Source: Patescibacteria group bacterium (GTDB taxonomy: Bacteria; Patescibacteriota; Minisyncoccia; Phycocordibacterales; Phycocordibacteraceae). Taken from it: a DNA stretch of 64,000 nucleotides. Shown in pieces: positions 104-18,004 of the stretch. The stretch lies in the NCBI GenBank assembly GCA_018970425.1, contig JAGWWK010000002.1, positions 7,891 through 71,890 on the forward strand, given 5' to 3'. Positions within the stretch are counted from its first letter, which is position 1. The number at the start of each line of letters is the position of its first letter. The notes below the pieces were generated by a model that did no database searches, had not been told where the DNA came from, and saw only the letters and a program-made list of their open reading frames with translations. A program made the position numbers and the translations under genes.

Positions 104-190
104 CGGAGAGGAAGAGATTCGAACTCTTGAAGAGGTTTCCCCCTTGCCGGTTTTCGAAACCGGTGCTTTCGACCACTCAGCCACCTCTCC
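104..190 (-). tRNA. tRNA-Ser (anticodon CGA), long variable arm
   Basis: Reverse complement folds as a cloverleaf: ggagagg acceptor stem, anticodon loop ttCGAaa, long extra arm, T-loop gttcgaatc. Confidence 0.8.
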
Positions 191-235
191 AGTTTATTAA
201 AACAATTTGCGCTACATTGAGCCACTGCTTCAACT

Positions 236-331
236 CATTACCCTACCGGGAATCGCCCGCGACTGAGAGCCATCTGGCTCTCGTCTGGGCACCGCCTCGG
301 TTACCTTCAGAACCTCCGGCGTTCGATTCCC
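236..331 (-). other. Degenerate fragment derived from tRNA-Glu: a 16-nt exact copy of the tRNA-Glu 3-prime end (accctaccgggaatcg, 240-255), a shortened T-loop, and a long imperfect hairpin at 256-291
   Basis: Sequence comparison with the adjacent tRNA-Glu. An inverted 11-mer gttcgattccc also lies at 320-330. No complete cloverleaf can be drawn. Confidence 0.4.
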
Positions 332-406
332 TGGTGACCCTACCGGGAATCGAACCCGGATTCTCAGCTTGAAAAGCTGGTGTCCTAACCATTAGACGAT
401 AGGGCC
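332..406 (-). tRNA. tRNA-Glu (anticodon TTC), CCA encoded
   Basis: Reverse complement ggccctatcgtctaatggttaggacaccagcttttcaagctg...gggttcgattcccggtagggtcacca folds as a cloverleaf. Confidence 0.85.
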
Positions 407-465
407 GTGCCTTTGCACTTAGGGCTACTATACCACTCCCTCTACACTCCTGCTACCCACGTGAC

Positions 466-1452
466 ATGCGCTATACTCAATCTATGGATTTAGCACTTGC
501 TCTCGCATTCCTCGGCGGCGGACTGGCAATTTTGGTGTTCGGCGCTGAATATTTAGTCAAAGGTTCGGCATCACTCGCCACACGGATTGGCGTACCTCCG
601 CTTGCGATAGGTCTCACCATCGTAGCCTTCGGCACCTCAACGCCAGAGCTCACAGTGAACCTCTACTCTGCGATAACCGGAGCGACAGATATCGCCATCG
701 GTAACGTAGTCGGATCCAATATCGCTAACATCTTACTGATTCTTGGTGTCTCATCGCTTGTGGCACCACTCGTCGTTAAAAACTCGACCGTATGGAAAGA
801 GATGCCCTTCGCACTCCTTGCAGGAGGACTACTCCTGGTGCTCGGGGCCGATCAAATCATAAGCGGTGCCGGACCTGACATGCTTACCCGCGGCGATGGA
901 CTCGCACTCATGGGGGTCTTCGCGATTTTCATGTACTACGTTGTAGGACTTGCTCGCGCGAACCGCGAAGCCACGAACGCAGAGGCGGTAGAAGAGATGC
1001 CGCTCGCGCGCTCGATAGTGTGTATTGTCATGGGTCTCGGCGCCCTCGTACTTGGCGGTAAGATCCTAGTAGACCAAGCAGTATTCCTGGCGCAGCTAGT
1101 AGGGTTGTCTGAAGCGGTTATTGGTCTCACCGTTGTCGCGGTAGGTACATCGCTGCCTGAACTTGCAACCTCCGTTATAGCAGCAATTCGAGGTCAGTAT
1201 GACATTGCGGTCGGCAACATCATCGGGTCAAACATATTCAATATATTCTGGATCTTAGGACTGACCGCCGTCATCGCCCCACTCCCCATATCACAGAGCT
1301 TCGGCGGAGATATTCTCGTCCTGCTCCTCACGACGCTCCTCCTTTTTCTCTTTATGTTTACGGGACGCAAGTTTGTCCTCGATCGATTCGAGGGCGCGTC
1401 GTTCGTTATTCTCTATATCGCGTACGTAGTATTCTTGCTAACACAGCACTAA
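466..1452 (+). CDS. CaCA-family Na+/Ca2+ exchanger (YrbG-like) membrane protein
   Basis: Two alpha-repeat motifs (GTSTPELTVN and GTSLPELATS) in a polytopic hydrophobic protein. Confidence 0.8.
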   Translation: MRYTQSMDLALALAFLGGGLAILVFGAEYLVKGSASLATRIGVPPLAIGLTIVAFGTSTPELTVNLYSAITGATDIAIGNVVGSNIANILLILGVSSLVAPLVVKNSTVWKEMPFALLAGGLLLVLGADQIISGAGPDMLTRGDGLALMGVFAIFMYYVVGLARANREATNAEAVEEMPLARSIVCIVMGLGALVLGGKILVDQAVFLAQLVGLSEAVIGLTVVAVGTSLPELATSVIAAIRGQYDIAVGNIIGSNIFNIFWILGLTAVIAPLPISQSFGGDILVLLLTTLLLFLFMFTGRKFVLDRFEGASFVILYIAYVVFLLTQH

Positions 1453-1638
1453 GCTCGGTCCTCTATAAACCCTCGAGCTTGATGCGCCCAGAGGCGTGCG
1501 CCCATCCGTCGCCTCTTGAGTAGCGTTTTGTTAATTATCTACACTCACACTTTCTGCAACTCGCACTCAGGAATTGCTCCCTCACGCAGAACCTTAGGCA
1601 CTGCTCCACGCGCGTCCACACGACGTCCGCGAGGACGA

Positions 1639-1672
1639 AAAACCCCCGCACTACTAGCGGGGGTTTTTCTTA
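1639..1672. terminator. Bidirectional intrinsic terminator (aaaaacccccgcactactagcgggggttttt)
   Basis: GC-rich hairpin flanked by an A-run and a T-run, between convergent genes. Confidence 0.7.
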
Positions 1673-3454
1673 CTCCTCGATGAAGCCGCCGGCTTGGTGC
1701 GCCCAGAGTCGAGCGTAGCACCCACCCTCCTTCGTCACGAGCACGTCATGCGTACCGTCTTCTACTATCGTACCGCCTTCCATGACGATGATGCGATCCA
1801 TCTCCTTTATCGTCGAGAGTCGGTGCGCGATAGCGATCACAGTCTTCCCTTGCATCAAGGTGTGGAGTGCCTTTTGTATCTCAGCCTCACTTTCAGAGTC
1901 GAGACTCGAGGTCGCCTCGTCGAGGATGAGTATCGGCGCCGCCTTCAGTATCGCGCGAGCGATAGCGATGCGCTGGCGCTGTCCTCCCGAGAGCTTTACG
2001 CCACGCTCACCCACCTCGGTGTCGTAGCCTTTCTCGAGTGCAGAGATAAACTCGTGTGCCTCAGCCTTCTTCGCTGCTTCGACCACCTCTTCGTGCGTGG
2101 CGTCGGGCTTTCCGTACGCAATGTTCTCGCGGATCGTGCGGTGAAAGAGTGCTGGGTCCTGTGGCACGACCGCGATGTGCTCGCGGAGTGAGTCCTGAGT
2201 CACCTCAGCGATATTCTGTCCTCCGAGCGTAATAGCGCCACCCTGTATGTCGTACTGGCGCAAGAGTATCGACACCAGCGTCGTTTTACCCGAGCCTGAC
2301 GGACCGACGAGTCCGACGCGCTCACCCTCTTTGAACGTGAGGTTAAAGTGCTCGAACACGTTTTTGTTTCCGTACGCGAAGGTCACGTCAGAGAGGACGA
2401 TGTCGCCGCCGCCCACGAGCGCCTTGGCACCCGGCGCGTCGACGACCGTGTGCGCTTCGAGTATCTGATCGAGTCCTTCTTTCGTCGTGCCGTACGACTC
2501 TGCGAAGTGGTTAATGTTCATACCGATGTACGAGAACCACCCGAGTATCCCGTTAATCACCGTAATAGACATGATGAACTGTCCTATCGTGAGATGTCCT
2601 TGGTCCCAGAGGTAGTATCCTGCTGCGACCATGCTGAGCGTAAAGAAGCCGAGGAGAATGTTATTTAACAAGAGGAGGAGCTCTGAGTAAAATCCGTTTT
2701 TCCACGTCGCGATGCGCAAGAGCTCACTCTGCTCAGCAACGAAGGCAACTTCTTTCTTGCGATTTGCAAAGTTAATGACCGAAAACATGTTCGACACGAT
2801 GTCGACCACGTAGCCCGAGAGTCGTGAGCGCAGTTCTTCGCGCTCTTTAGCGTACACCGAGGTGTACTTCGAGAGCTGGTAGTTTGTGATGACGAGCACC
2901 ACCATCCACACCGCGAAGAGGCCGGTGAGGACTGGGCTCGCAGTATAGAGGAGTCCAGCCGAGGCCACGAACGCGAGCGCGGTGTTTATAAAGTTCCACA
3001 CCACTGCGTCGACTAAGTCGCGTGCACCGCCAGAGGCGTTCCAAATTTTATTTGCAGTCGAGCCGGACATGCGGTTTGAGAAGTATGGGATCGAGTGGAG
3101 CGACAGGTGCTCGAAGAGTATCGTCGATGCGTGCGAGCGCATCGCAGACGTCCACGTGAGTGCACTCGCCCCCGACGCGCGGTACAAGAGCTGGTGACCA
3201 ATGAGTGTCACCGGGAGCGCCACCACCCACCAGAAAAACTGTCGGTGCGTCGCAAGCCCGCTACTCAGCGCATGTGCGGTGTCGATGAGCTGCTGGTACA
3301 CGTAGTACGTCGCCGTGTCTACCGACACAGCAATGACCATAAAGAAAATAGTAAGCACACCCCACGCCCAGTAGGGGCGCGAGACGTAGAGCGCAAACCG
3401 TATCGGTGTGCGCGGAACGCGTGTGTGTGCAGCGTGTGTGTGCATATATCGCAC
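1670..3454 (-). CDS. ABC transporter, fused permease and ATPase (MsbA/exporter type)
   Basis: Six-TM N-terminal domain, Walker A GPSGSGKTT, signature LSGGQRQRIAIARA, Walker B ILILDEATS. Confidence 0.9.
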   Translation of the reverse strand: MRYMHTHAAHTRVPRTPIRFALYVSRPYWAWGVLTIFFMVIAVSVDTATYYVYQQLIDTAHALSSGLATHRQFFWWVVALPVTLIGHQLLYRASGASALTWTSAMRSHASTILFEHLSLHSIPYFSNRMSGSTANKIWNASGGARDLVDAVVWNFINTALAFVASAGLLYTASPVLTGLFAVWMVVLVITNYQLSKYTSVYAKEREELRSRLSGYVVDIVSNMFSVINFANRKKEVAFVAEQSELLRIATWKNGFYSELLLLLNNILLGFFTLSMVAAGYYLWDQGHLTIGQFIMSITVINGILGWFSYIGMNINHFAESYGTTKEGLDQILEAHTVVDAPGAKALVGGGDIVLSDVTFAYGNKNVFEHFNLTFKEGERVGLVGPSGSGKTTLVSILLRQYDIQGGAITLGGQNIAEVTQDSLREHIAVVPQDPALFHRTIRENIAYGKPDATHEEVVEAAKKAEAHEFISALEKGYDTEVGERGVKLSGGQRQRIAIARAILKAAPILILDEATSSLDSESEAEIQKALHTLMQGKTVIAIAHRLSTIKEMDRIIVMEGGTIVEDGTHDVLVTKEGGCYARLWAHQAGGFIEE

Positions 3455-3597
3455 CTCTCTCTATACTACCCCCTTGGATGCACAAAAAGGCGCCGGTGCG
3501 CCGCGCGATTTTCTCTCTATGCGGGTATACCCGCTCGCGTATCCTTTCGTACAGTCCCCAGGGTTATGAGGAAGTGCTTACTAATATTACACCACAT

Positions 3598-4146
3598 TTA
3601 TACCCCTTGCAAGTCACTCCAGGGTACTGCCCCTTCGCGTATCAGGACGAGCGACTCGCCCCGAGCGTCGACCACCGTCGACGGAAGCGACTCAGGGAGC
3701 GTGCTCGGCCATGCAGGATCAAAGTAGATCTCTCCCGCTCGGTCACCAAACTGCGAAAGGATATCTGGGACTGTCTTTTGAGTCGACTGACCCGAGACGT
3801 TTGCGCTCGTCGCAGTAATAGGTCCACCAATTTTTTTAATAAGCTCTCGGACGACTGGGTGGTCAGGAACACGCACGCCGATAGTTCCATCATCAGACAG
3901 CTCGTGAGGTAGGTTTTTTGCTTTCAGAATAATGGTGAGCTTTCCGGGTAAAAACTTTTGCACCAAGCGTTCTGCAAGTGGTGTCACTTCGGCATACTCA
4001 CGCATCATCTCGAGCCCTGAGACGGCTATCGAGTAGTGCTTCTCGCCCCCGCTCCCCTTCAAAACGCGGAGCGCGCGTACCGCCTCAGCGTCGCGCGCGT
4101 CGACACCGAGGCCATAGACTGTATCTGTTGGGTAGAGGTAGATCAC
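3598..4146 (-). CDS. tsaC: L-threonylcarbamoyladenylate synthase TsaC/YrdC
   Basis: YrdC-domain motifs: YPTDTVYGLG near the N-terminus and TSANVSGQ later. Confidence 0.85.
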   Translation of the reverse strand: MIYLYPTDTVYGLGVDARDAEAVRALRVLKGSGGEKHYSIAVSGLEMMREYAEVTPLAERLVQKFLPGKLTIILKAKNLPHELSDDGTIGVRVPDHPVVRELIKKIGGPITATSANVSGQSTQKTVPDILSQFGDRAGEIYFDPAWPSTLPESLPSTVVDARGESLVLIREGAVPWSDLQGV

Positions 4147-4149
4147 GAA

Positions 4150-4347
4150 CTATGCGTTCCAAGGCCACCACGAAGAGTGGAGGAACTTTCTTTGGCGACG
4201 CTTGTGCTTACCGCCCGAGCTACGCTCACTAGCAATACCTTGAGAAATTCCATATAGACCTGCAGCAGAGATAACAGCTGCAATCACCCATGCGACTGGG
4301 CTTGAAACTACATCTTCTAAAAGTTCTGTCGACGCACCTATAGTCAT
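4150..4347 (-). CDS. Hypothetical small membrane protein (65 aa, one TM)
   Basis: ATG-initiated ORF with a hydrophobic segment, ending 4 nt before the tsaC start; weak support. Confidence 0.3.
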   Translation of the reverse strand: MTIGASTELLEDVVSSPVAWVIAAVISAAGLYGISQGIASERSSGGKHKRRQRKFLHSSWWPWNA

Positions 4348-4530
4348 AGCATCTAAAAACTATCCCGAGAAAGTTCCCCTCAACGTAGGTGAGAGACTCT
4401 TTTTCAGGCCCAGCTTGCTTCTAATCAAGCCGTACTTTATACCTTACTCTTCATTACGCCACAGTGCAATAGTGGTGTGGTGTAATTGCTGTGGCTTAAA
4501 AACCCGATTTGGTGTATAGTTTTAGCCACG

Positions 4531-4603
4531 GGCGCTTAGCTCAGTTGGTAGAGCATTTCTTTGACGTAGAAAGGGTCAGAGGTTCGAGTCCTCTAGCGCC
4601 CAC
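4531..4603 (+). tRNA. tRNA-Val (anticodon GAC)
   Basis: gggcgcttagctcagttggtagagc...anticodon loop ttGACgt...ggttcgagtcctctagcgccca. Confidence 0.85.
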
Positions 4604-4608
4604 CCCGT

Positions 4609-4633
4609 AAAACCGGCACTGCCGGTTTTTTTA
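4609..4633. terminator. Bidirectional terminator (aaaaccggcactgccggttttttt) serving tRNA-Val and orn
   Basis: Hairpin with a flanking A-run and T-run; it overlaps the orn stop codon. Confidence 0.7.
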
Positions 4634-5185
4634 TTTCAACCAGTTCTCGCGGTAGTAGCGGAGCTCTTCGATAGACCCCTTGATGTCATCGAGCGCGCGG
4701 TGTGTCTTACCCTCCTTCATCTTTTGTGCGGCCTCAAAGTACTCCGGGCGCCAGCGTCGTGCGAGCTCTTTCACTGCGGTGACATCGATGTTGCGATAGT
4801 GGAGATAGAAGTAGAGGTCATGCATCTGAAGTCGCATAAATGTGCGGTCGAGCGTCATCGAGTTACCACACAGTGGCGCCGTCTGTGGTGCGCAGTAGGT
4901 CGAAATAAACGTGAGCGTCTCTGCCTCTGCTTCCTGAATAGTTGTAGTCGATGCACGGACACGGTCGATGATCCCCGACTTCTTGTGTATCTCTAGGACC
5001 TCGGGCGGGATGTGGTTAAACCGGTCCATGTCTGCCTGGATCGTAATTTGTGGCCCCTCGGCGATGATCTGTAGGTCTTTGTCTGTAATTATTGTTGCGA
5101 CTTCAGTAATAGTGTCCACCGTTGGATCGACAATAGACGTCATTTCAAAGTCCATCCACACTAAGAGGTCGTCTCGCTGTGCCAT
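4631..5185 (-). CDS. orn: Oligoribonuclease (DEDD 3-prime to 5-prime exonuclease)
   Basis: LVWMDFEMT DEDD motif and overall resemblance to Orn; ATG at 5185 chosen. Confidence 0.8.
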   Translation of the reverse strand: MAQRDDLLVWMDFEMTSIVDPTVDTITEVATIITDKDLQIIAEGPQITIQADMDRFNHIPPEVLEIHKKSGIIDRVRASTTTIQEAEAETLTFISTYCAPQTAPLCGNSMTLDRTFMRLQMHDLYFYLHYRNIDVTAVKELARRWRPEYFEAAQKMKEGKTHRALDDIKGSIEELRYYRENWLK

Positions 5186-5211
5186 GTGATTTTTGCTACA
5201 CTCACCATACC

Positions 5212-6270
5212 ATGCGTGTCCTAGCAATAGAAACCTCGTGCGATGAAACCGCGGTCTCGATTCTTGAATGTTCAGGTAGCGTGAGTGGGGCGACCTTCCG
5301 CGTGCTCGGAAACGCGCTCTACTCGCAAGCTGATCTCCATGCTCAATACGGTGGCGTCTTCCCTACCCTCGCGAAGCGCGAACATATTAAGAACCTTCCC
5401 GTCATGTATGCGGAAGCGATGCGGCAAGCTGGAAACCCGACCGTCGACCTTATCGCAGTAACCCAAGGTCCTGGACTTGAGCCCGCGCTTTGGACGGGCA
5501 TTGAATACGCAAAGGAGCTTGGTGACACGCTTGGCGTACCCGTCTTTGGCACTGATCACATGGAAGGCCACATCGTCTCAGGACTCGTCTCGCAAAATGA
5601 CGCATCCTCGTACACCCTTTCTGCTCCAGCCTTCCCTATACTTGGATTACTTATTTCTGGCGGGCACACCGAGCTCGTCCTCATGCGTACGTGGCACCAG
5701 TACGAGCTCGTCGGTCGCACGCTCGACGACGCCGTGGGCGAAGCGTTCGACAAAGTTGCCCGCATGCTCGACCTCCCCTACCCCGGCGGACCGCGGATAG
5801 AGAAGCTAGCCGCTCAAGCAAGCGCACGCGGAGCGGTCCACGATATAGTATTTCCGCGACCAATGCTGCATGACAAGAGCTGCAACTTCTCATTCTCAGG
5901 ACTCAAGACTGCCGTTCTCTATCGCATACGCGAAATGAAAGATTTGTCAGACGATGATAAGGAGCATATCGCACAGGCCTTCCAAGATGCCGCACGGGAA
6001 GTGCTCGTGGCAAAAACCAAGAAAGCTTTGCTCGAAACTGGTGCACGCACGCTCGCGGTAGGCGGTGGTGTCTCCGCGAGCAAAAATATTCGCGCAGGAC
6101 TTGAAGATCTTGTCCGGACTGACTTTCCTGAAGTCCACCTCTCGTACCCTACTGGCGGTCTCCACCTCGACAACTCCATCATGATAGGTATGGCCGCATA
6201 CCTCCGCCACGCGGCCGGGTACCCTAGTGGCCCCCTTGAGGCCCGAGGGGCGCAAAAACTGGCTCCGTGA
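5212..6270 (+). CDS. tsaD: tRNA N6-adenosine threonylcarbamoyltransferase TsaD (Kae1/YgjD)
   Basis: MRVLAIETSCDETAVSIL N-terminus and GGVSASKN motif; ATG at 5212. Confidence 0.9.
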   Translation: MRVLAIETSCDETAVSILECSGSVSGATFRVLGNALYSQADLHAQYGGVFPTLAKREHIKNLPVMYAEAMRQAGNPTVDLIAVTQGPGLEPALWTGIEYAKELGDTLGVPVFGTDHMEGHIVSGLVSQNDASSYTLSAPAFPILGLLISGGHTELVLMRTWHQYELVGRTLDDAVGEAFDKVARMLDLPYPGGPRIEKLAAQASARGAVHDIVFPRPMLHDKSCNFSFSGLKTAVLYRIREMKDLSDDDKEHIAQAFQDAAREVLVAKTKKALLETGARTLAVGGGVSASKNIRAGLEDLVRTDFPEVHLSYPTGGLHLDNSIMIGMAAYLRHAAGYPSGPLEARGAQKLAP

Positions 6271-6282
6271 TACCATTTTTAA

Positions 6283-8442
6283 ATGCTCGACCCCAAGTTC
6301 CTTAAGCCCTACGATGCGCAGTCCTCTGAAGGCCGCATCTACAGTACGTGGGAGAATTCCGGCTATTGCAACCCTGACAACTTGCCTCACAACCGCACGG
6401 AGCCGTTTTCTATTGTTCTGCCGCCTCCTAACGTTACCGGTACCCTCCACATGGGCTCAGCGCTCATGCTCGCACTTGAAGATATGATTGTGCGCTACAA
6501 GCGTATGCAAGGATTCAAAACACTCTGGATCCCAGGCACTGACTCTGCTGCCATAGCAACGCAGGCACGCGTAGAAAAAAATATTCAAAATGCCGAGGGC
6601 AAGAGCAGGTATGACCTGGGGCGTGAAGAGCTCCTCAGACGGATTGATGTGTATGTAGAATCAACCAAAAATATAATTATTGGGCAGATGCGTGCCACGG
6701 GCGCTTCTCTCGACTGGTCGCGCTACGCCTACACAATGGATGCTGAGCGCTACAGCGCTGTGATGCACGCGTTTATCAAAATGTACGAAGCGGGTCTTAT
6801 CTACCGGGGGAACCGTATCGTCAACTGGGACCCGAAGGGACAAACAACCATCTCAGACGATGAAATTGTGTATGAGGAGCGAGACGCAATGCTTTACACG
6901 TTTACCTATGGAAAGGAGTTTCCTATCCCTATCGCAACGACCAGGCCTGAAACAAAAGTTGGCGATGTGGCGGTTGCAGTGCACCCGTCCGATGAGCGCT
7001 ACGCTGAATACGTCGGCAACGTATACGACGCTGTCTTTTGCGATGTACCCATTCGCATCACGGTCGTTGCCGACCACACAGTAGACAGGGAGTTTGGAAC
7101 TGGTGCCGTCGGAGTTACCCCGGCGCACTCACTCGCTGACTGGGATATTGCTGACCGGCACAACTTACAACGCCCGCAAGTCATAAATGAGTACGCAAAG
7201 ATGACGGTCGAGGGCCGCTTGCACGGAAAAAAGACAACTGTCGCGCGCGAAGAGGTGGTCGCCTGGCTCAGATCCGAAGGACTGCTCATTACGGAGGAAA
7301 AAATTAAGCACAATGTTGCAACTGCTGAGCGGACCGGCGGTATTATCGAGCCTTTGCCAAAGCTCCAGTGGTTTGTTGCGGTAAATAAAGAGTTTACCCG
7401 CCCTGATGGCACCGTCGATACGCTCAAGGAGGTCATGCGCCGCGCTGTAGACTCGGGCAAGACAACATTCCTCACTGAGCGCTTCGAAAAGCAGTATCGA
7501 CACTGGGTCGAGAATCTCCGCGACTGGTGTATCTCTCGTCAAATTTGGTTCGGGCACCGTATCCCCGTGTGGTACCAGGGCGATGCTAGTAAGGTCCAGG
7601 TGACGTCCCCCGGCGAAGGATGGTCGCAAGACGAAGACGTGCTCGATACCTGGTTTTCCTCCGGACTCTGGACCATGACCACGCTCGGCTGGCCCAATGA
7701 TACTGAAGACCTGCGAACGTATCACCCCACCGCACTTATTGAAACTGGGTACGATATTCTTTCCTTCTGGGTCGCGCGCATGATACTCATGAGCGGTTTT
7801 TTCCTCAACGATGTGCCGTTTAAAACAGTCTACTTTCACGGAATTGTCCGCGACGGCCAAGGGCGCAAGATATCAAAGTCGTTAGGCAACAACATTGATC
7901 CCGTCGACCTAGCGGCAAAGTATGGTATGGACGCGGTACGCATCGCGCTCATTATGGGTATGGCTCCCGGCACCGACTCAAAGGTAGATGAAAACAAAAT
8001 CCGTGGCTACAAAAATTTTGCAAATAAAATTTGGAATATTGCTCGCTTCGTCCTTGAGAACACTGAAGGTACTGACCTCACGGAAACTCATGTCTTTTCC
8101 GCTGAAGACCAAGAAGACCTTGCGGCACTCAGCCGTACCGTGCTCGATGTCACGAAGCATATGGACGAGTACCGCGTCGACCTCGCCGCAGATCGCGCGT
8201 ATCACTACGTATGGCACACGTTTGCAGATGAGGTCATTGAGCGGGCAAAACCAATTCTCAAAGGCACCGACGCGGTGGCACAGCGTGCAACTGCCGCGAA
8301 ACTGTATACCATCCTTACCACCTCACTCAAACTCCTCCACCCGTTTATGCCGTTTGTGACGGAGGAAATCTGGCTGGCGCTCCCGCAAAAAGACGCGGAG
8401 CTCTTACTCATCGCTCCCTGGCCAAAATCCGCGATACAATAA
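6283..8442 (+). CDS. valS: Valyl-tRNA synthetase, compact form (719 aa)
   Basis: HIGH region PPPNVTGTLHMGSAL, KMSKS-type KISKSLGN, CP1 editing region; no C-terminal coiled coil. Confidence 0.85.
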   Translation: MLDPKFLKPYDAQSSEGRIYSTWENSGYCNPDNLPHNRTEPFSIVLPPPNVTGTLHMGSALMLALEDMIVRYKRMQGFKTLWIPGTDSAAIATQARVEKNIQNAEGKSRYDLGREELLRRIDVYVESTKNIIIGQMRATGASLDWSRYAYTMDAERYSAVMHAFIKMYEAGLIYRGNRIVNWDPKGQTTISDDEIVYEERDAMLYTFTYGKEFPIPIATTRPETKVGDVAVAVHPSDERYAEYVGNVYDAVFCDVPIRITVVADHTVDREFGTGAVGVTPAHSLADWDIADRHNLQRPQVINEYAKMTVEGRLHGKKTTVAREEVVAWLRSEGLLITEEKIKHNVATAERTGGIIEPLPKLQWFVAVNKEFTRPDGTVDTLKEVMRRAVDSGKTTFLTERFEKQYRHWVENLRDWCISRQIWFGHRIPVWYQGDASKVQVTSPGEGWSQDEDVLDTWFSSGLWTMTTLGWPNDTEDLRTYHPTALIETGYDILSFWVARMILMSGFFLNDVPFKTVYFHGIVRDGQGRKISKSLGNNIDPVDLAAKYGMDAVRIALIMGMAPGTDSKVDENKIRGYKNFANKIWNIARFVLENTEGTDLTETHVFSAEDQEDLAALSRTVLDVTKHMDEYRVDLAADRAYHYVWHTFADEVIERAKPILKGTDAVAQRATAAKLYTILTTSLKLLHPFMPFVTEEIWLALPQKDAELLLIAPWPKSAIQ

Positions 8443-9745: not shown

Positions 9746-9819
9746 GCCGGGATAGCTCAGTTAGTTAGAGCATTCGCCTGAAGAGCGAAGGGTCGTCAGT
9801 GCGAATCTGACTCCCGGCA
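9746..9819 (+). tRNA. tRNA-Phe (anticodon GAA)
   Basis: gccgggatagctcagttagttagagc...anticodon loop ctGAAga...ggtcgtcagtgcgaatctgactcccggca. Confidence 0.85.
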
Positions 9820-9913
9820 CCGAGAGAAGAGAGTGAGACGCTTGCGTACTCACTCTTGGACGAGGTGACGGAGTATGTGTCTCATACTCCCGGCACCGAG
9901 AGAAGAGAGTGAG
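9810..9913 (+). repeat. Two exact 28-nt direct repeats (actcccggcaccgagagaagagagtgag at 9810-9837 and 9886-9913). The first includes the last 10 nt of tRNA-Phe; the 48-nt spacer is rich in hairpins
   Basis: Exact repeat read directly; stem-loops gagtgag/ctcactc, ggagtat/atactcc and agagagt/actctct. Confidence 0.85.
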
Positions 9914-9937
9914 GCGCCTTAATGAATTACTCTCTGA

Positions 9938-10237: not shown

Positions 10238-10262
10238 GAACGTAGTATAGCCGAAAAAATGG

Positions 10263-10334: not shown

Positions 10335-10395
10335 CTGGGGCCCCGACAAGCGTAGCTTATGAGGGCGTACCTCGATAGTACACCACTCAGGGCGT

Positions 10396-10421
10396 AGCAA
10401 AAACCCCGCGTGAGCGGGGTG
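10396..10421 (-). terminator. Intrinsic terminator downstream of the nrdH-like gene
   Basis: ccccgcgtgagcgggg hairpin followed by a T-run on the minus strand. Confidence 0.6.
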
Positions 10422-10425
10422 TGCG

Positions 10426-10680: not shown

Positions 10681-10746
10681 GAATATGTGTAATTACTTTG
10701 CTATTATAGCATAGCCGCATACCAGCGTTGCGGTCGGAATATTTGT

Positions 10747-10817
10747 GCAGGATTAGTTTAGTGGCAGAATGACTGCTTCCCAAGCAGTAGGCACGAGTTC
10801 GATTCTCGTATCCTGCA
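10747..10817 (+). tRNA. tRNA-Gly (anticodon CCC)
   Basis: gcaggattagtttagtggcagaatgactgc-ttCCCaa-gcagtaggcacgagttcgattctcgtatcctgca. Confidence 0.8.
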
Positions 10818-10863
10818 CAAATCCTCTGTACCGACTCCTAGGGTCCCACGGCCCAGCTCTCTC

Positions 10864-11238
10864 TTACCAGAAAGGTATGAGTGCGCGGAGGCGTTCCCAT
10901 ACGGTAGCAGGGGCTTCGGGCTCTGGAGCCACGCTGTCGGCCTTAACAAATATAAACTCGACTTCCCCATTTTTGACCCATGGGTAGGTAGAGCGAATGT
11001 GCTCCTCTACCCCTCGCTCAGTTTTGAGCGCAGCAAGCTTATCCTTGAGAACCGCCACTCGCTCAGCAAGCTCGGCACGGGTCGACTCTGCTTCGATTCG
11101 CTCCGCCCGCACCACGCTCAGCGTGCCGAATACGCGATAGGTCGAAATGAGGAGCGCGGACGCAAGGAGGACAAGTACAATAGCGAGCGCCCACATAAGG
11201 ACTCGCTGTACCTGCCGAACAGTCCGCTTTGTCGCCAT
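10864..11238 (-). CDS. Septum-formation initiator family protein (FtsB/DivIC-like)
   Basis: N-terminal TM helix followed by a coiled-coil-like region; TATACT box 9 nt upstream of the ATG at 11238. Confidence 0.5.
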   Translation of the reverse strand: MATKRTVRQVQRVLMWALAIVLVLLASALLISTYRVFGTLSVVRAERIEAESTRAELAERVAVLKDKLAALKTERGVEEHIRSTYPWVKNGEVEFIFVKADSVAPEPEAPATVWERLRALIPFW

Positions 11239-11273
11239 AGCCAAAGTATAGTATGTACTGTATACTCTCATCC

Positions 11274-11381
11274 ATGTTATTCGACAAGAAAACGAAAGGG
11301 ATTATCCGAATATTCTGGATTATCACATCCATCCTCGTGATCGTCTCAATGGTGGCCCTCTCGATCCCGTTCGGCTATTAA
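11274..11381 (+). CDS. Candidate 35-aa hydrophobic micropeptide (MLFDKKTKGIIRIFWIITSILVIVSMVALSIPFGY)
   Basis: ATG ORF with a TATACT box 9 nt upstream; a single TM helix; absent from the >=60-aa ORF track. Confidence 0.3.
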   Translation: MLFDKKTKGIIRIFWIITSILVIVSMVALSIPFGY

Positions 11382-11394
11382 GCGCACCTACACT

Positions 11395-11688
11395 ATGGGT
11401 ATTCAAGACGATGATGCAGAGGCGATTCTCTGGGGAATGTACCGGGTATCAGAAATCGGTAGAAACCTATGTTTTTCTATTCTTATAGGACTCGGTGGGT
11501 ATGGAGCTCTCGATGCACTTGATATCAGTCCTTTTGAATTAGCGTGGACGGACTACACCCTTGGGGGTCTCGTCCTATCTATAGCTACGGTACTTCTGCA
11601 TCAATTTTCAAAAAAGACATATCAAAGCCAGCAAGAAGTAAGTGTCCGATCGATGGACGACCAATACTCTGACTCACAGAAACATTAA
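11395..11688 (+). CDS. Hypothetical membrane protein (97 aa, two TM)
   Basis: ORF with two hydrophobic helices. Confidence 0.4.
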   Translation: MGIQDDDAEAILWGMYRVSEIGRNLCFSILIGLGGYGALDALDISPFELAWTDYTLGGLVLSIATVLLHQFSKKTYQSQQEVSVRSMDDQYSDSQKH

Positions 11689-13466
11689 TCTTCACTCGGC
11701 TTAATTAGTTTAAGAAAGACTTCCTGTGGGATGTGCATGCGATTGCCGCCAAGTTCGCCGCGGCGCTCTTTTCCTTTCTTTTGCTTCTCGAGCAATTTCA
11801 TTTTTCGCGTTACGTCACCGCCATACAGGTAGCCCGTCACGTCTTTTCTCAGCGCGCTTATCGACTCACTTGCAACAATCCGCCCGTCAGCGCGTGCCTG
11901 GATCTTCACCACAAACTGTTGCCGCGGTAGCTCTTTCTTAAGTCGCTCAACCAGAGAGCGCGCCTCTCCTTCTAACCTGCGGCGAGACAATATGCGCGAA
12001 AGCGCCGGCACCTCCTCCTCCGCTACCAACACATCGAGCCGTACCACGTCTGCTGACTGCCAGCCGGTCAGGTCGTATGAGAGCGACGCGTAGCCACTCG
12101 TCGCACTTTTCAATGAATCGAAAAAACCGTGCATCAGCTCGCGAAGCGGCATGTGTACCGTGAGGCGCATACGCGAGAGATACATTTCCGTAGTTTGTAT
12201 TACTCCCTCGTGCTCGTAGAGAAGTTGCGTGACCGGTGACAGATATTCGACCGGCGTCATGATGGTGAGCGTCGTCACCTGCTCAGTTACTGACTCGATT
12301 GATCCATCATTTGGAAATTGCGATGCTGACCTCGCATACAATGCGCCCTTCTTTGTCGTCACTTCGTATGTAATCGAAGGCGCGGTAATGACTGGCACTA
12401 CCCCGTGCTCTCGTTTGAGCCGCTCCGTTACGATCTCCATGTGGAGCATGCCCAAAAAGCCAGTGCGGAACCCTTTTCCAAGCGTGAGCGATCCTTCCTC
12501 TTCAAACGACAATGCGGAGTCCGAGAGTTTGAGACGGTACAGTGCGTGCTTGAGGAGCGTAAAGTCGTCTTGTGACTCCGGATACAGTGATGCCCAAACT
12601 ACTGGTTTTGGCACCTCGTATCCGGGGAGCGCGCTACCATTTTTTTGTGCCAGCGTATCGCCAACAATCCCCTGCGATGCCTCGCGAAGTCCGGTAACAA
12701 CGTACCCGATATCTCCTGCTACGAGCGCTTCCGCCTTGCGTTCGTGTGGCACCACATGGCCAAGCTCAAGGAGTGTTGAAGATGCTCCTGCGGAGACGAG
12801 CGTAGCGCGTTCACGTGGCGTCAGTACGCCGTCCATCACACGGACGTACGCCACTATGCCGCGGTGTTCTGAAAATGAGTAGTCAAACACGAGAGCTCGT
12901 GTCCCCGGTCCTCCCTTCGGTACTGGAGCCGGAATGCGGGTAACAATCGCGTCAAGAAGCTCAGGCACACCCGCTCCAGTCCTGCCGGATACATGCATTA
13001 TGTCGTCGAGCTCAACCCCGAGGAGTTCAACCATTTCAATCGAGATATCATCGACGCGCGCGAGAGGAGAGTCAATCTTTGTTATGACCGGCAGAATGGC
13101 GCATCCCGCTTCTCGAGCCATGTGCAAGACCGCCAGGGTTTGGGCTTGGACGCCCTGCGTCGCGTCAACAAGGAGGAGCACGCCCTCCACCGCAGTAAGC
13201 GCGCGTGACACCTCATACGCGAAGTCAATGTGTCCAGGCGTATCAATAAGATTGAAAACATGCGGAACACCATTTGCACTCCACTCCATGCGGACTGGCT
13301 GCATCTTGATGGTGATACCCCGCTCACGTTCAAGGTCCATCGCATCAAGGACCTGAGCGCGCATCTTCCGCGCTTCGATAGTCTTTGTAACCTCAAGCAT
13401 ACGGTCCGCAAGCGTCGACTTACCATGGTCGATGTGCGCTATGATTGAAAAATTTCGTATGTTCAT
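11685..13466 (-). CDS. lepA: Elongation factor 4 (LepA)
   Basis: MNIRNFSIIAHIDHGKSTLADR G-domain and the LepA C-terminal domain. Confidence 0.95.
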   Translation of the reverse strand: MNIRNFSIIAHIDHGKSTLADRMLEVTKTIEARKMRAQVLDAMDLERERGITIKMQPVRMEWSANGVPHVFNLIDTPGHIDFAYEVSRALTAVEGVLLLVDATQGVQAQTLAVLHMAREAGCAILPVITKIDSPLARVDDISIEMVELLGVELDDIMHVSGRTGAGVPELLDAIVTRIPAPVPKGGPGTRALVFDYSFSEHRGIVAYVRVMDGVLTPRERATLVSAGASSTLLELGHVVPHERKAEALVAGDIGYVVTGLREASQGIVGDTLAQKNGSALPGYEVPKPVVWASLYPESQDDFTLLKHALYRLKLSDSALSFEEEGSLTLGKGFRTGFLGMLHMEIVTERLKREHGVVPVITAPSITYEVTTKKGALYARSASQFPNDGSIESVTEQVTTLTIMTPVEYLSPVTQLLYEHEGVIQTTEMYLSRMRLTVHMPLRELMHGFFDSLKSATSGYASLSYDLTGWQSADVVRLDVLVAEEEVPALSRILSRRRLEGEARSLVERLKKELPRQQFVVKIQARADGRIVASESISALRKDVTGYLYGGDVTRKMKLLEKQKKGKERRGELGGNRMHIPQEVFLKLIKPSED

Positions 13467-15088
13467 CGTAAGAATCGGGCTGTAACGAGTGCGGTAATAT
13501 CGCGCAGTTCCGCGCTCTTCAGGAGTACGAGTACCGCAATCCAGAGGACGAGCCCTGCGGCTCCCGCGGTAACCCCTTGAGCGAAGATACCTAAAAAGGT
13601 GTTCGTTGGCAACAAGGGGCCAAACGCGTTGAGCGCAAGGTACGCCGCGGCGGCTCCTGCAACTGACGCAGCAAATGACGTTCCAAACGCGCGAGCCGCA
13701 ACACTGCTCCCGCCGTAACGGATCACAAACAGGCCGACATAGACAAGCGCGGCCAGAATCATTGCAGCTGAAAAAGCCGCAGGAAGAACTAAGACCTCCG
13801 TGCCTGGCACATCACTCACGCGTAGCAGTGCCTCAAGGAAGTAGAGCATGACAGGATACGCGCCAACAACGTGAATTGAGAGAAACGCGAGCCCTGCCGC
13901 ACCAAGTGCGCTCGCAAACGCAATACATACGGGTGCAAGTGACGCGTGAGCGGCATAATATGCTCGCGAAAACGCAAGGAGGAGTGCCTGCGCGAGGAGT
14001 GACACGACAAACAACGCGAGCATTGCGGCAGTGAGTCGCGTATCATCCCAAGAAAACGCTCCCGATCCTAAGACCACTCGGACGATGTGTGCTCGGAGCA
14101 CAATAATGAGCATAGTTGCAGGAAGCAGCCAAAATACAAGGTGTCGCACCGCAACCCAGACCTCTCGCGCGTACTCGCCCCACTCCGCACGATGCGCATG
14201 CCCGGCAAGCGCAGGAAACAGTGCAGATGCATACGAGAGCCCAATAACGGTAAGTGCGACTGACTGCAGGTTGAACGCGAAACTGAGCGCGGCTACTGAC
14301 CCGACCGCGATTTGAGATGCAAGTGCCGCAAATGCTACCAAGAGGAGTTGCGTTGAAAAAAGCGTGAGCGACCGCGGTACTGATGGCGTAATGACTGAAT
14401 GTGTAAATTCACTAACTGAAAGCCCTCCTGATGCGCCCTGCCCTCTCATAACCGGCCCGATCTGTACCCCGAGGTGGAGCGCTGCACCCAAGACCACTCC
14501 CCACGCGAGTCCTGCCATGCCAAATGTCGGAAAGAGGAACATAGCACCCGCAATGATACCGAGGTTATACAAAGCCGGTGCTAATGCGAAAAGCGCAAAG
14601 CGCCGTTCACTCTGCACGTATGACGCGAGGATGGAGGAAATACCGAGGAGAATCGGCTGAATAAGGAGAATACGCGCGAGAGATGCAGTTTCCTCTAGCG
14701 CCGCAGCACTGAAGCCAGGCGCAAGAAGCGGCACCAGGAGATCTAAGGAGAGCATAAGCACGAGTGCGATAGGCACTGCCGCCACTCCGAAATAGAACAC
14801 CAGTGATCGGAGGGCACCTAAACGCTCACTTGGACTCCTGCGCGAGAAAAGCGGCACAAGTACAAACGACGACACCACGAGCGTAAACACAGCGAACGCG
14901 ACATCAGGTACACGGAATGCTGCAAAGTAGATGTCGAGCTCTGGACCTGCGCCAAACAGGTGCGCGAAGGTGCGGTCTCGCAACAGTGCAAGCACTTGTG
15001 AGACGAGTGAGAACGCTGCTAAGAGATACGCGGCCTCATGGAGGCCGCGTATTTCTCTATCCATACGCGCAAGGAACGTTCGAACCAT
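13463..15088 (-). CDS. murJ: Lipid II flippase MurJ/MviN
   Basis: MurJ N-terminal signature (ASQVLALLRDRTFAHLFGAGPELDIYFAAFRVPD) and 14 TM helices. Confidence 0.85.
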   Translation of the reverse strand: MVRTFLARMDREIRGLHEAAYLLAAFSLVSQVLALLRDRTFAHLFGAGPELDIYFAAFRVPDVAFAVFTLVVSSFVLVPLFSRRSPSERLGALRSLVFYFGVAAVPIALVLMLSLDLLVPLLAPGFSAAALEETASLARILLIQPILLGISSILASYVQSERRFALFALAPALYNLGIIAGAMFLFPTFGMAGLAWGVVLGAALHLGVQIGPVMRGQGASGGLSVSEFTHSVITPSVPRSLTLFSTQLLLVAFAALASQIAVGSVAALSFAFNLQSVALTVIGLSYASALFPALAGHAHRAEWGEYAREVWVAVRHLVFWLLPATMLIIVLRAHIVRVVLGSGAFSWDDTRLTAAMLALFVVSLLAQALLLAFSRAYYAAHASLAPVCIAFASALGAAGLAFLSIHVVGAYPVMLYFLEALLRVSDVPGTEVLVLPAAFSAAMILAALVYVGLFVIRYGGSSVAARAFGTSFAASVAGAAAAYLALNAFGPLLPTNTFLGIFAQGVTAGAAGLVLWIAVLVLLKSAELRDITALVTARFLR

Positions 15089-15091
15089 TGA

Positions 15092-17359
15092 CTAGCGTCT
15101 CGGCGCAAACGGGTTTTTACCGGCGCGGAGACCGGTAATAATCCCGGCGACTTCCTCATTATCTGGATTCAGGCGCTGTACTTCGACAAACTCTGGAATG
15201 GCGAGCTCATACTGATTTTTAACCACATAGGTGCGTCCTAGGTAGAATCGCGCATTCGCGTACTCCGGAGCGATCGCTACCGCGCGTAGAAATGATTCAA
15301 GCGCGGCATCATATCGGCGTGCCTCAAACTTAAGCACTCCCGCCTGGAACTGAAGAACCGCGTTTGACGGCTCGAAGAGTGCTGCTGCCTCTGCTCGCTC
15401 TATGGCCTTATCAAGGTTGCCAGAGTTCAGCTCAAGCTGTGCAAGAGAGTTAAGCGCGGGAATAAAGTCACGCTTCAAGGCAATCGACTCCTCGAGGAAT
15501 GCGCGCGCTTCGGCCGTCTTCCCCTGCGATGCCTCAAGCTGCGCAAGCGTTAGAGGTAGAGTCGGCATGCCAGGGTTTAATGTTCGCGCTTTCACCATCG
15601 CATTTACTGCCGCCTCGTACGAACCGTCTACTTTGAGCGGGACGACTGCCTGATAGGTAGCGCTCAATGTCGTCCAGTTGCGATAGTTGGTCTCGTTCAT
15701 TCGAACCGCGGAGAGCGCTGCTTCAACGGCGGACCCAAGCTCGCGTTGGAATGCCTCTTGAGAGCGCGTATCACTACCCGCGGACGCGATAATCGTGTTG
15801 AGCTTCGCGAGATGAATAAACGCGGCTAGACGGAATGCTTCATCAGTCGGATTGAGTGTAACCGCGCTCCGCACACGCTCAAGGCCGAGGTCAAAATTTC
15901 CCTCAACTTGTGCCGCCCGAGATGCCTCCTCAGCCGCCTGCGCAGCTGCGTAGACAACACCGACGCCGTAAACAGTAAGTACCGACGCAACGAGCGCAAA
16001 CGCGAGTCCAAGTACCGCCACGAACCCGACGCGAGGACGCTCGCGAAAGTCAACGGAGAACACTGGTCCAAGAGACGCGCGGTGCTGGAGCGCCGCATAC
16101 ATACCGATGAGTGCGAAGCCGATAAATGCGACCTGCGGAGATGGTAAGTAAAGAACCGCCATCGCGAGGGTATACAGACCGCCGTAGAACGTGAGCACCA
16201 TGAGCTGATACGTCTGCGGATCATGTGCTGTACGCGAGAGAAGACCTCGTACTCCCACAAAGAGAAATGCCCCAATAAGGAGGAGCCATGCCAGCGTACC
16301 AATAAGACCCGTGGTCACAATTGACGTAGGAATAAGTCCGACTCCTGCGGTAAAGTCGGCGTTCCAGAAGATGCTCTGATTTACCTCAAGAGGGCGATAC
16401 AGATCCCACTGAGTTGCAAACAAGTTTGGCCCCGCGCCGGTCAGCGGGTTACTCGCTAGAGCTCCCTGCGCTATCGCAAACGTTGATGTCCACGCTGGTC
16501 GCGCTTCTACGTGCTCAAGACCAAACGCGCGGCTCATACTTCCGCCAATCGATCCCGCAAAGAGCACCGCGACAGTTGCAAGCACGAAGACAATCGTTGC
16601 CGCGATAGAGAATGTGGACTGTTCTTTAGGCTCAAGAACGAGCTTGTATATAAGGACACCAAGCGCGACAAGGCCGAGTGCAACCCATGCCGGTGTGAAG
16701 TTAACAAGCGTCACGAAAAATACGGAAGCGACGAGTGTCGTGAGTACCGCGTACCACTCTCGGCCCTTGAGCGTAAACGACTCGAGCGCGATAAGTGCCA
16801 TACCGCCCATGAGACCAAAAAAGATTGCGAGATCGGTCCACTTGCCGAGCGGGGTAAAGAGCGGGTTGGTCATTACTCCAAACGAAGTAAGATCAGTTCC
16901 AAGAACGAGTCGGATGAGATGAAAGAGCGCTACAACTCCAGAGACTGCGACGAGTACCGTGAGAGCCATGCGCACATCCGCCTTGCTGTCTGACACCGCA
17001 AACGGCACAGTGACAGAGAGCGCGAGCATTGCCGCGAAGAATACTGTATCTCCATCGAGCCCGCTTCCGACAAGCGACCACATAAATGACGGACCTAGGA
17101 GCGCCGATGCGAGGTACGCAAGCGGTAAGAGCCACGCAGCTCCAATAACAAACGAAAGCGGAATACTGATAGATCCGCGCTTTAATGAGTACAAAATAGC
17201 GAGTACAGAAGCACCAATCAGCGCGACAGTTGCGATGGTCATCTTCAGTGCAGGTATGGGCACCGTGTACGAGACAATAAAAATAGTTGGTACTAAAAAG
17301 AGTCCCGCAAGGTAGATACGATTTGCGGCATTAGATATGAATGAATGTACTGATGACAT
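15092..17359 (-). CDS. Large polytopic membrane protein (O-antigen ligase/polymerase-like) with a C-terminal TPR-repeat domain
   Basis: About 12 TM helices followed by TPR-like repeats (AYQ...LNPGMP, LKRDFIPALNSLAQLE). Confidence 0.6.
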   Translation of the reverse strand: MSSVHSFISNAANRIYLAGLFLVPTIFIVSYTVPIPALKMTIATVALIGASVLAILYSLKRGSISIPLSFVIGAAWLLPLAYLASALLGPSFMWSLVGSGLDGDTVFFAAMLALSVTVPFAVSDSKADVRMALTVLVAVSGVVALFHLIRLVLGTDLTSFGVMTNPLFTPLGKWTDLAIFFGLMGGMALIALESFTLKGREWYAVLTTLVASVFFVTLVNFTPAWVALGLVALGVLIYKLVLEPKEQSTFSIAATIVFVLATVAVLFAGSIGGSMSRAFGLEHVEARPAWTSTFAIAQGALASNPLTGAGPNLFATQWDLYRPLEVNQSIFWNADFTAGVGLIPTSIVTTGLIGTLAWLLLIGAFLFVGVRGLLSRTAHDPQTYQLMVLTFYGGLYTLAMAVLYLPSPQVAFIGFALIGMYAALQHRASLGPVFSVDFRERPRVGFVAVLGLAFALVASVLTVYGVGVVYAAAQAAEEASRAAQVEGNFDLGLERVRSAVTLNPTDEAFRLAAFIHLAKLNTIIASAGSDTRSQEAFQRELGSAVEAALSAVRMNETNYRNWTTLSATYQAVVPLKVDGSYEAAVNAMVKARTLNPGMPTLPLTLAQLEASQGKTAEARAFLEESIALKRDFIPALNSLAQLELNSGNLDKAIERAEAAALFEPSNAVLQFQAGVLKFEARRYDAALESFLRAVAIAPEYANARFYLGRTYVVKNQYELAIPEFVEVQRLNPDNEEVAGIITGLRAGKNPFAPRR

Positions 17360-17402
17360 ACTGCGGCTAAATTGATATATGCGCAGTATACCCTATCGCG
17401 TG

Positions 17403-17427
17403 AAAACCCCGCGGATGCGGGGTTTTC
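17403..17427 (-). terminator. Terminator hairpin (aaaaccccgcggatgcggggtttt) downstream of rnpB
   Basis: GC-rich hairpin with flanking A and T runs. Confidence 0.65.
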
Positions 17428-17433
17428 ACAACT

Positions 17434-17738
17434 GTGGGCTATGCGTCGGTAAGCCGAATTCTGTTGAGGACGTGAGTCCATGGGCAATCATGTATCTTGT
17501 CCGCATGTTGCCATACGGATCTTTGCGGCACTTCCCATTGCTGGGACACGGCCTTGCACCCTGGTAAGGATTTTGCACGTTTCAGCCGGACTTAACCGGG
17601 TCGTTTCTGTTCGCACCTCTCACCGCGCCCACGCGGTGTGCGGGCGTTACCCGCTACCTTTTTAACCTGCGCACCCTTTCGAGTGCCAAGTGAGTGTTCG
17701 GACTTTCCTCTCTCAAAGAGCGATTGCCTGACGCAGTT
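17434..17738 (-). ncRNA. rnpB: RNase P RNA, bacterial type A
   Basis: The minus-strand transcript carries GAGGAAAGUCCG (P4 5-prime strand), GGGUAACGCCCG, GCAAGGCC and ACAGAAUUCGGCUUA (P4 3-prime strand); P1 pairing GCGUC/GACGC. Confidence 0.85.
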
Positions 17739-17741
17739 CTG

Positions 17742-17768
17742 ATTATATCACAATAAATAACTTGTCAA
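17742..17768 (-). promoter_or_regulatory. Sigma70-like promoter of rnpB (-35 TTGACA, 15-nt spacer, -10 TATAAT)
   Basis: Read on the minus strand immediately upstream of the RNase P RNA 5-prime end. Confidence 0.55.
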
Positions 17769-17770
17769 AA

Positions 17771-17937
17771 GCGGAGGCGGAGAGATTCGCCCGCAACTCG
17801 CGTCCTGCGGGCCGCGGTCTGGGCACCGACTCACTCGCCTACGCTCGCTCCGTCGTTCTCATCTCTCCTTCTCTCGACATCAGTCCTTACCGAGACATGC
17901 TCGGCTCGGACTGCTGTTGCGGAGGCGGAGAGATTCG
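17771..17937 (-). repeat. 19-nt exact direct repeat (gcggaggcggagagattcg) at 17771-17789 and 17919-17937; the second copy is the 3-prime end of tRNA-Ser(GGA)
   Basis: Exact duplicate read directly; the two copies flank a 129-bp insert containing the hairpin ccgagcatgtctcgg. Confidence 0.8.
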
Positions 17938-18004
17938 AACTCTCGGAGGGTTTCCCCTCACACGCTTTCCAAGCGTGCGCACTAGACCGCTATGCGACGC
18001 CTCC
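17920..18004 (-). tRNA. tRNA-Ser (anticodon GGA), long variable arm
   Basis: Reverse complement ggaggcgtcgcatagcggtctagtgcgcacgc-ttGGAaa-gcgtgtgaggggaaaccctccgagagttcgaatctctccgcctccg. Confidence 0.85.

Follow-up and report, generated by a model that had tools for sequence, protein, structure and literature searches.

Three of the eight tRNA genes in a 64,000-nucleotide stretch of a Patescibacteria genome (assembly GCA_018970425.1, contig JAGWWK010000002.1, positions 7,891 to 71,890; the whole of this stretch is referred to below as the window) are followed, on their own strand, by a second copy of their 3' end. According to the reading that we regard as probable, these duplicated ends are the 3' arms of structured modules that lie in the 3' trailers of tRNA and transfer-messenger RNA (tmRNA) genes, on the tRNA strand, and that are of the same type as the tRNA-linked repeats (TLRs) of Escherichia coli. 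By analogy, the feature can be described as the Patescibacterial counterpart of the E. coli TLRs, furnished with a new and strongly conserved core, here designated R1. The elements are most likely read-through trailer RNAs that use a tRNA-like end helix.

The eight tRNA genes were called by ARAGORN and Rfam, in agreement with the count in an earlier note on this DNA that had been made from the sequence alone. That note had reported second copies of the tRNA 3' end at four genes, of which those at tRNA-Glu, tRNA-Phe, and tRNA-Ser(GGA) stand and that at tRNA-Thr does not. Specifically, the direct repeat comprises 16 exactly matching nucleotides (nt) for tRNA-Glu (240-255 and 337-352, spacing 97), 28 exact nt, or 32 nt with one mismatch, for tRNA-Phe (9810-9841 and 9886-9917, spacing 76), and 19 exact nt for tRNA-Ser(GGA) (17771-17789 and 17919-17937, spacing 148). 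Shuffling yields an expectation of only 0.04 to 0.11 matches even if two to three mismatches are permitted, so the three repeats are not due to chance, as had been maintained. No third copy of any of them was found within the 64-kb window. The 20-nt 3' end of tRNA-Thr has no second copy within three mismatches; the copy of approximately 13 nt ascribed to it is GGAG-CGGCTCC, in which 7 nt match exactly and another 4 nt lie beyond a gap, is located inside an open reading frame (41511-41891, minus strand), and was dismissed as a chance match. A perfect 72-nt tandem repeat of 2.5 copies is present directly 3' of tRNA-Thr (41357-41539, plus strand); it contains neither a sense nor an antisense copy of the tRNA end and gives no match to the covariance model (CM) of the R1 core. 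The features of the window are as follows.

332-406, minus strand: tRNA-Glu(UUC); positions 56-71 of the tRNA are the proximal repeat copy (337-352)
240-331, minus strand: element 1, core type R1, beginning directly after the CCA of tRNA-Glu
321-331, minus strand: antisense arm of element 1, GGGAATCGAAC
314-324, minus strand: motif of element 1, GAACGCCGGAG
283-293, minus strand: motif of element 1, GGTGCCCAGAC
253-263, minus strand: motif of element 1, GTCGCGGGCGA
240-255, minus strand: sense copy of element 1, CGATTCCCGGTAGGGT
103-190, minus strand: tRNA-Ser(CGA), 49 nt 3' of element 1 on the same strand
1-102, minus strand: degenerate family member after tRNA-Ser(CGA), cut by the window edge
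65-97, minus strand: perfect 14-bp hairpin (CCTCTCAGAATAGC/GCTATTCTGAGAGG) right after tRNA-Ser(CGA), with no T run following
35-51, minus strand: arm of this member, antisense to the T arm of tRNA-Ser(CGA)
27-37, minus strand: motif GAATGCCGGAG of this member
9746-9821, plus strand: tRNA-Phe(GAA)
9822-9917, plus strand: minimal tRNA-linked repeat after tRNA-Phe, a 76-nt unit in approximately 1.4 copies, without R1 core
17919-18004, minus strand: tRNA-Ser(GGA); the proximal repeat copy is 17919-17937
17771-17918, minus strand: element 2, core type R1, after tRNA-Ser(GGA)
17875-17918, minus strand: 5' hairpin domain of element 2
17855-17873, minus strand: antisense arm of element 2
17848-17858, minus strand: motif of element 2, GAACGACGGAG
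17817-17827, minus strand: motif of element 2, GGTGCCCAGAC
17787-17797, minus strand: motif of element 2, GTTGCGGGCGA
17771-17789, minus strand: sense copy of element 2, CGAATCTCTCCGCCTCCGC
41264-41339, plus strand: tRNA-Thr(UGU), without linked repeat and not part of the feature

The inserts bracketed by the Glu and Ser(GGA) repeats have in common, when read on the tRNA strand, the motifs GAACG(C/A)CGGAG, CGGTGCCCAGAC, and AGT(C/T)GCGGGCGA, the last of which abuts the second copy in both. Both are predicted to form the same three-way junction, the outer helix of which is formed by the second copy and the first part of the insert, a segment antisense to the T arm. Element 1 has a fold z score of -4.2 and scores 76.6 bits with the R1 model over 235-340; element 2 scores 73.2 bits over 17769-17874. 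With these common motifs and this common fold, the two inserts are homologous to each other, the two copies being 45% identical. The expectations that the repeats bracket structured inserts and that these could form a family tied to tRNA 3' ends are thus confirmed for these two loci.

The other two trailers deviate from this pattern in different ways. The Phe element contains a 14-bp hairpin (9864-9897) whose 5' strand GGTGACGGAGTATG is antisense to the tRNA end and whose 3' strand is the copy ACTCCCGGCACC; its fold z score is -3.5, and it gives no match to the R1 model. Its repeat extends past the end of the tRNA because the unit begins a second, partial tandem copy, and the same overrun occurs in the tyrT locus of E. 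coli and at locus L047 of a relative. Similar mini-hairpins follow tRNA-Arg(TCT) in L223, L224, and L230. The trailer of tRNA-Ser(CGA), which was completed beyond the window start from an identical contig (L001), had been listed as lacking the pattern; this is correct for the sense copy, but the antisense arm and the GAATGCCGGAG motif are present. It retains stem P2, and lacks both P3 and the sense copy, which identifies it as a degenerate member of the R1 element family; its score of only 6.8 bits with the R1 model is too low for membership by score.

In the general layout, which runs on the tRNA strand, an antisense arm is followed by GAAC-NNCGGAG with stem P2 and its tandem G-A loop, by GGUGCCCAGAC, stem P3, and GUCGCGGGCGA, and usually by the sense copy. 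The 5' arm is antisense to positions ~53 to 76 of the cognate tRNA, its invariant GAAC being complementary to the universal GTTC, and the median free energy of the arm-tRNA duplex is -23.8 kcal/mol, compared with -17.4 kcal/mol for controls. A hairpin splits this arm at the junction of T stem and acceptor stem in many relatives, but not in the two full copies of the window. Immediately behind the invariant GCGGGCGA, the 3' arm sets in with T-loop sequence and continues to the last base of the tRNA; in 51% of the copies, its identity to the cognate tRNA end reaches 90% or more (0.4% for noncognate tRNAs), and an exact match of 10 nt or more is found in approximately 73%, the modal repeat among relatives being 19 nt. 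The two arms pair to form the closing helix, whose 3' strand and end are the same as those of the tRNA. Overall, the antisense arm is a more constant feature than the sense copy. A decayed tandem duplicate of the tRNA was rejected as the origin of this arrangement: apart from the 3' segment, the inserts do not resemble their tRNA, inserts from different tRNAs are instead homologous among themselves, and the sequence of the 5' arm corresponds to the Watson-Crick complement of the 3' strand, discriminator base included, and not to the 5' strand of the tRNA (e.g., in L145).

An unbiased MAFFT/RNAalifold alignment of 18 copies comprises 30 base pairs, 17 of which show compensatory changes; at the two middle positions of P2, for instance, GC, CG, and AU pairs replace one another. 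Among 115 CM hits, 93.9% of the alignment cells are paired, compared with 72% after shuffling and at most 43% with slid partners, and 25 of the 30 pairs change on both sides. The core is accordingly a conserved three-way junction with strong compensatory covariation. G-U pairs outnumber A-C mismatches in P2 and P3 by 59 to 18, an excess which assigns the fold to the tRNA-sense strand. Two further structural candidates were discarded. Kissing of the 5' hairpin loop (ACUGCU) with the P2 loop (AGCAG) receives no backing from loop complementarity, which, at 10.3% with 5 nt or more, does not exceed the 10.5% obtained with swapped partners, and inspection by eye for a hammerhead-like core revealed neither CUGAUGA nor GAAA.

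The R1 family comprises at least 144 copies, defined by sequence patterns, in Patescibacteria genomes and metagenomes, with lengths of approximately 105 to 140 nt. A pattern scan of one genome per species gave many chance matches in high-GC genomes plus 26 true copies, and a stricter pattern applied to metagenomes gave at least 120 further stretches. Every named source among the 26 is a metagenome-assembled genome of Patescibacteria (Saccharibacteria, Wolfebacteria, Taylorbacteria, Nomurabacteria, or Paceibacterota), and the loci sampled from outside this group, the Candidate Phyla Radiation, held only about 10 tRNAs. A tRNA or tmRNA gene is located directly upstream on the same strand in 113 of the 144 copies. 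These linked copies cover at least 25 anticodons and three tmRNA genes, with Ser, Gly, and Ala accounting for approximately half; the distance from the tRNA or tmRNA end to the first conserved motif ranges from 7 to 270 nt, and the GAAC motif lies at a median of 65 nt from the end of the tRNA. The tmRNA (ssrA) genes precede elements at L031 (2141-2730), L099 (568-1130), and L140; the 3' arm copies the tmRNA 3' end in L031, and the adjacent copy is largely decayed in L099 and L140 (approximately 50% identity). Tandem arrays occur in L047 (a pair with 98% identity), L185, L130, L180, L193, and L201.

The same layout, in which a hairpin and an antisense arm ending in TCGAA precede the core and the sense copy, is seen with at least three other core types. 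They are represented by L100 (6618-6745, minus strand), the tRNA-Leu locus of L057, the tRNA-Arg(CCT) locus of L136, L208, L037 (6781-6886), and L154 (3204-3380), and they indicate a superfamily wider than the R1 model detects. Of 113 tRNAs without an R1 core, 21 are linked to elements that have this design but another core, or to minimal hairpins of the Phe kind. Scans with Rfam at gathering thresholds and by E value returned only tRNAs, a subthreshold RNase P RNA, and a weak match to RtT RNA, and no ribozyme or riboswitch family; Rfam 15 holds no model for the R1 elements, and no mention of the Patescibacterial motif was found in the literature searched.

Among the 31 copies without a called upstream tRNA, 17 are situated at contig ends. 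At the remaining 14 loci (e.g., L126, L135, L146, L174, L190, L191, and L196), the elements have ample upstream sequence in which ARAGORN calls no tRNA. Intron-containing tRNAs have been reported to be common in Patescibacteria (PMC13011429), and the genes upstream of these elements may be of that kind. Two orphan elements with full cores and arms, likewise with no upstream tRNA called, were noted in L057 (680-980, minus strand) and L104 (1-230, plus strand); both are preceded by the common motif ..G(G/C)GTTCGGACTAATTCAA(T/G)AATA.., and this motif may mark where another RNA gene ends.

Duplicated tRNA 3' ends of this kind invite an explanation by integration. The segment from the T loop to the 3' end of tRNA genes, as well as tmRNA genes, are classic target sublocations of integrases, and the earlier note had suggested that the repeats could be leftover attL/attR scars of tyrosine-integrase elements that had integrated into and excised from this segment. 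The extent of the direct repeat, from the T loop to the tRNA end, its occurrence at tmRNA genes, and the frequent position of the element behind one terminator and ahead of another are in keeping with such a history. However, neither an integrase nor an island or cargo is present between the repeats in 113 loci, and the insert, which measures 48 to 130 bp, has a conserved RNA-like fold with covariation. Moreover, recombination between attachment (att) sites leaves the antisense copy of the tRNA end unexplained, and third copies of the repeats are missing from the 64 kb. A scan of a viral contig collection gave 11 pattern matches, all of which were due to chance, and thus no real member, so that an origin from phage attP sites was discarded as well. 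The Ser(GGA) locus is syntenic in L015, L172, L180, L155, and L124, the flanking genes of which are only 65 to 73% identical to those of the window, and the copies at this locus appear, from sequence comparison, to be vertically inherited. The acceptor sequence of tRNA-Ser(GGA) varies from genome to genome, and the distal copy agrees in each case with the tRNA next to it, a pattern of concerted evolution and not of a decaying scar. The earlier note had named conservation of the segments as functional elements in related genomes as evidence that would speak against scars, and this is largely what is observed. We regard the att-scar interpretation as largely refuted, and such a history as highly improbable for these loci.

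The same note had offered miniature mobile elements as a second possibility. A nonautonomous element, either similar to a miniature inverted-repeat transposable element (MITE) or RNA mediated, would home to tRNA 3' ends and copy the target end on insertion. This would account for a homologous core behind at least 25 tRNAs plus tmRNA with arms that fit each target, a state to which stepwise evolution hardly leads, for inverted repeats formed by the arms, and for the existence of tandem arrays. It would also fit the lineage-dependent presence or absence of elements at the same tRNA, as for tRNA-Glu(UUC), which has the R1 core in the window and in L176 but a different core in L100. On the other hand, copies at different tRNAs of one genome are 35 to 70% identical and thus as divergent as random members of the family (57%). 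Many near-identical copies per genome, the hallmark of MITEs, are therefore not seen; only tandem neighbors reach approximately 98% identity within one contig. The orthologous Ser(GGA) copy has been retained despite the divergence of its flanking genes, and the compensatory changes in the stems imply that the elements have long been resident. Neither a transposase nor an integrase or reverse transcriptase was seen in association with them, and the viral contigs contain no real members. We consider mobility of this kind unlikely.

A further alternative concerns function rather than origin. The 5' arm could act as an antisense switch in cis that competes for the 3' half of the adjacent nascent tRNA, with the distal copy serving as decoy or replacement strand. 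In this way, the element would control whether that one tRNA folds, matures at its 3' end, or passes quality control. The arm complements tRNA positions 53 to 76, including the universal GTTC via the invariant GAAC. This complementarity persists, with an even stronger median of -28.5 kcal/mol, in members that lack the adjacent sense copy or have it displaced, such as L157, L133, and the Ser(CGA) copy of the window, a contrast which is inflated because this low-identity class includes copies merely displaced by small insertions. In addition, the predicted minimum-free-energy folds of tRNA plus element are swapped for both copies of the window (236-406, minus strand, z score of -6.0; 17765-18004, minus strand, z score of -5.5): the antisense arm pairs with the proximal 3' half of the tRNA, while the distal copy closes the acceptor stem. 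Such folds are thermodynamic predictions only, however, and cotranscriptional folding, tertiary contacts, and modifications favor the cloverleaf; terminators between tRNA and element would uncouple the two in many loci. It is a tentative idea, and in our judgment a rather doubtful one, that Patescibacteria keep a dedicated riboregulator behind a large share of their tRNA and tmRNA genes, in the form of a strand-exchange switch on the strand comprising the acceptor and T-arm segments.

To return to trailer RNAs of the TLR type, the explanation that we prefer, the element would be transcribed along with its tRNA, be it as the spacer between two tRNAs or because a first terminator is read through. 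Elements are located between two same-strand tRNAs, at 12 to 37 nt from the next tRNA, in L100, L149, L173, and L195, and no promoter-like or terminator-like site was called in the segment 1-520 of the window, which holds tRNA-Glu, element 1, and tRNA-Ser(CGA). Owing to the tRNA-like end helix, the end of the trailer RNA would be set and protected by the machinery for tRNA 3' ends (RNase Z, exonucleases, CCA addition, and possibly RNase P). Once released, the RNA of approximately 110 to 170 nt would act via its conserved junction core, to which a factor probably binds. The copy may be kept identical to the tRNA by selection, by unequal recombination of the two short repeats with each other, or by both; such recombination would also yield the tandem arrays of relatives and the Phe repeat of about 1.4 units.

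Several points weigh against this explanation. The conserved motifs are partly imposed through the search patterns, and the alignment of 115 hits was fitted to the structure of the model. In many relatives, a strong terminator-like hairpin with a T run separates tRNA and element, so that transcription of the element there depends on read-through; generally, transcription and processing of the elements are steps that we infer. About one quarter of the members have a sense copy that is decayed, indel bearing, or missing, which means that exact identity is not always required, and the 5' arm of several members pairs also with the discriminator base and CCA, leaving no free tRNA-like tail. Finally, arms matching more than 25 different tRNAs can hardly be explained unless templating or recombination is involved, for which reason a recombinational or mobile origin is retained as a minority view.

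The TLRs of E. coli (Egan and Landy, 1978; Rudd, 1999; both as summarized in PMC8144298) provide the closest parallel. E. coli K-12 contains 22 of them at ten loci; they belong to the operon of a tRNA or 5S rRNA gene, which they follow directly, with one to five per locus, often in tandem, and their 3'-terminal 18 to 19 bp reproduce exactly the end of this tRNA or rRNA (PMC8144298). The three rrn-linked TLRs lie between the first and second terminators, are produced by read-through, are processed to small RNAs, and bind Hfq and CsrA, whereas for the tRNA-linked ones no function is established, an early claim of a role of RtT RNA in the stringent response having been withdrawn (PMC8144298). The Patescibacterial elements resemble the TLRs in their same-strand position directly 3' of the tRNA (Glu, Ser(GGA), and Phe in the window; 113 of 144 relatives), in the identity of the 3' end to the upstream tRNA (16 nt for Glu, 19 nt for Ser(GGA), and 12 (+16) nt for Phe), and in their tandem arrangement in relatives and, with about 1.4 units, at Phe; transcription within the operon and processing to a discrete RNA would be in line with the genomic context. 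They differ in core sequence and junction, in distribution (Patescibacteria for R1, Enterobacterales for TLRs), in following tmRNA as well as tRNAs, and in the strongly conserved three-way junction with invariant motifs; furthermore, the published description of TLRs (PMC8144298) stresses the sense copy, not the antisense arm. The att repeats of islands and prophages share with the elements only the direct repeat of a tRNA or tmRNA gene segment that extends from T loop to 3' end; the small insert without integrase, the conserved fold, the antisense copy, and the distal copy evolving in concert with the tRNA set the two apart.

The most detailed comparison is possible with RtT RNA (rttR) of the E. 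coli tyrT operon (Rfam RF00391). There, a multibranch core is closed by pairing of GGGGAAGGAU with the copied AAUCCUUCCCC...CCA, and this CCA is also the end of the annotated 171-nt RNA. Its unit measures 178 bp, compared with a tandem period of 176 nt in L047, and it has the ...GAUGAGAA... arm ending in common with the Ser(GGA) element of the window. In sequence, however, the Rfam RtT model gives only a weak full-length match of 16.5 bits (E value of 2.4; gathering score of 45) on the Ser(GGA) element (17769-17883, minus strand) and no match on the Glu element. Conversely, the R1 model applied to three E. coli units matches the outer helix only (8 to 9 bits, E value of approximately 1). Homology in sequence is therefore not detectable, and the parallel that we claim is an architectural one alone.

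Further observations concern the surroundings of the elements. A bacterial type A RNase P RNA is located at 17434-17739 (minus strand), beginning approximately 30 nt after the Ser(GGA) element; it scores 78 bits, below the Rfam gathering score of 100, and several of its helices are shortened or missing. Right after the Ser(GGA) sense copy, TTGACA (17768-17763), a 15-nt spacer, and TATAAT (17747-17742) can be recognized by eye, a site left uncalled by the promoter scan, which demands a spacer of 16 to 18 nt. Elsewhere in the window, a CCG-rich short tandem repeat (CCTCCGCCG-like; periods of 9, 18, and 21) is present at 46740-46797.

Should the elements act as riboregulators, they could control maturation, repair, or surveillance of individual tRNAs, or they could mimic a tRNA end that is recognized, and perhaps even charged, by the same enzymes; the E. 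coli TLRs would then be the enterobacterial counterpart of the same principle. Short duplications of tRNA 3' ends are commonly taken for att sites, which they are not here, so heuristics for the prediction of islands would be misled in these genomes. A TLR-like architecture is present behind a large share of the tRNA genes in the sampled Patescibacteria contigs, with a structural conservation far stronger than in the TLRs, and its recurrence in this group, tmRNA genes included, argues that the architecture is functional, being either ancient or convergently favored. With more than 140 sequences and clear covariation, the elements constitute a candidate new RNA family that is suited to experiments in cultivable Saccharibacteria.

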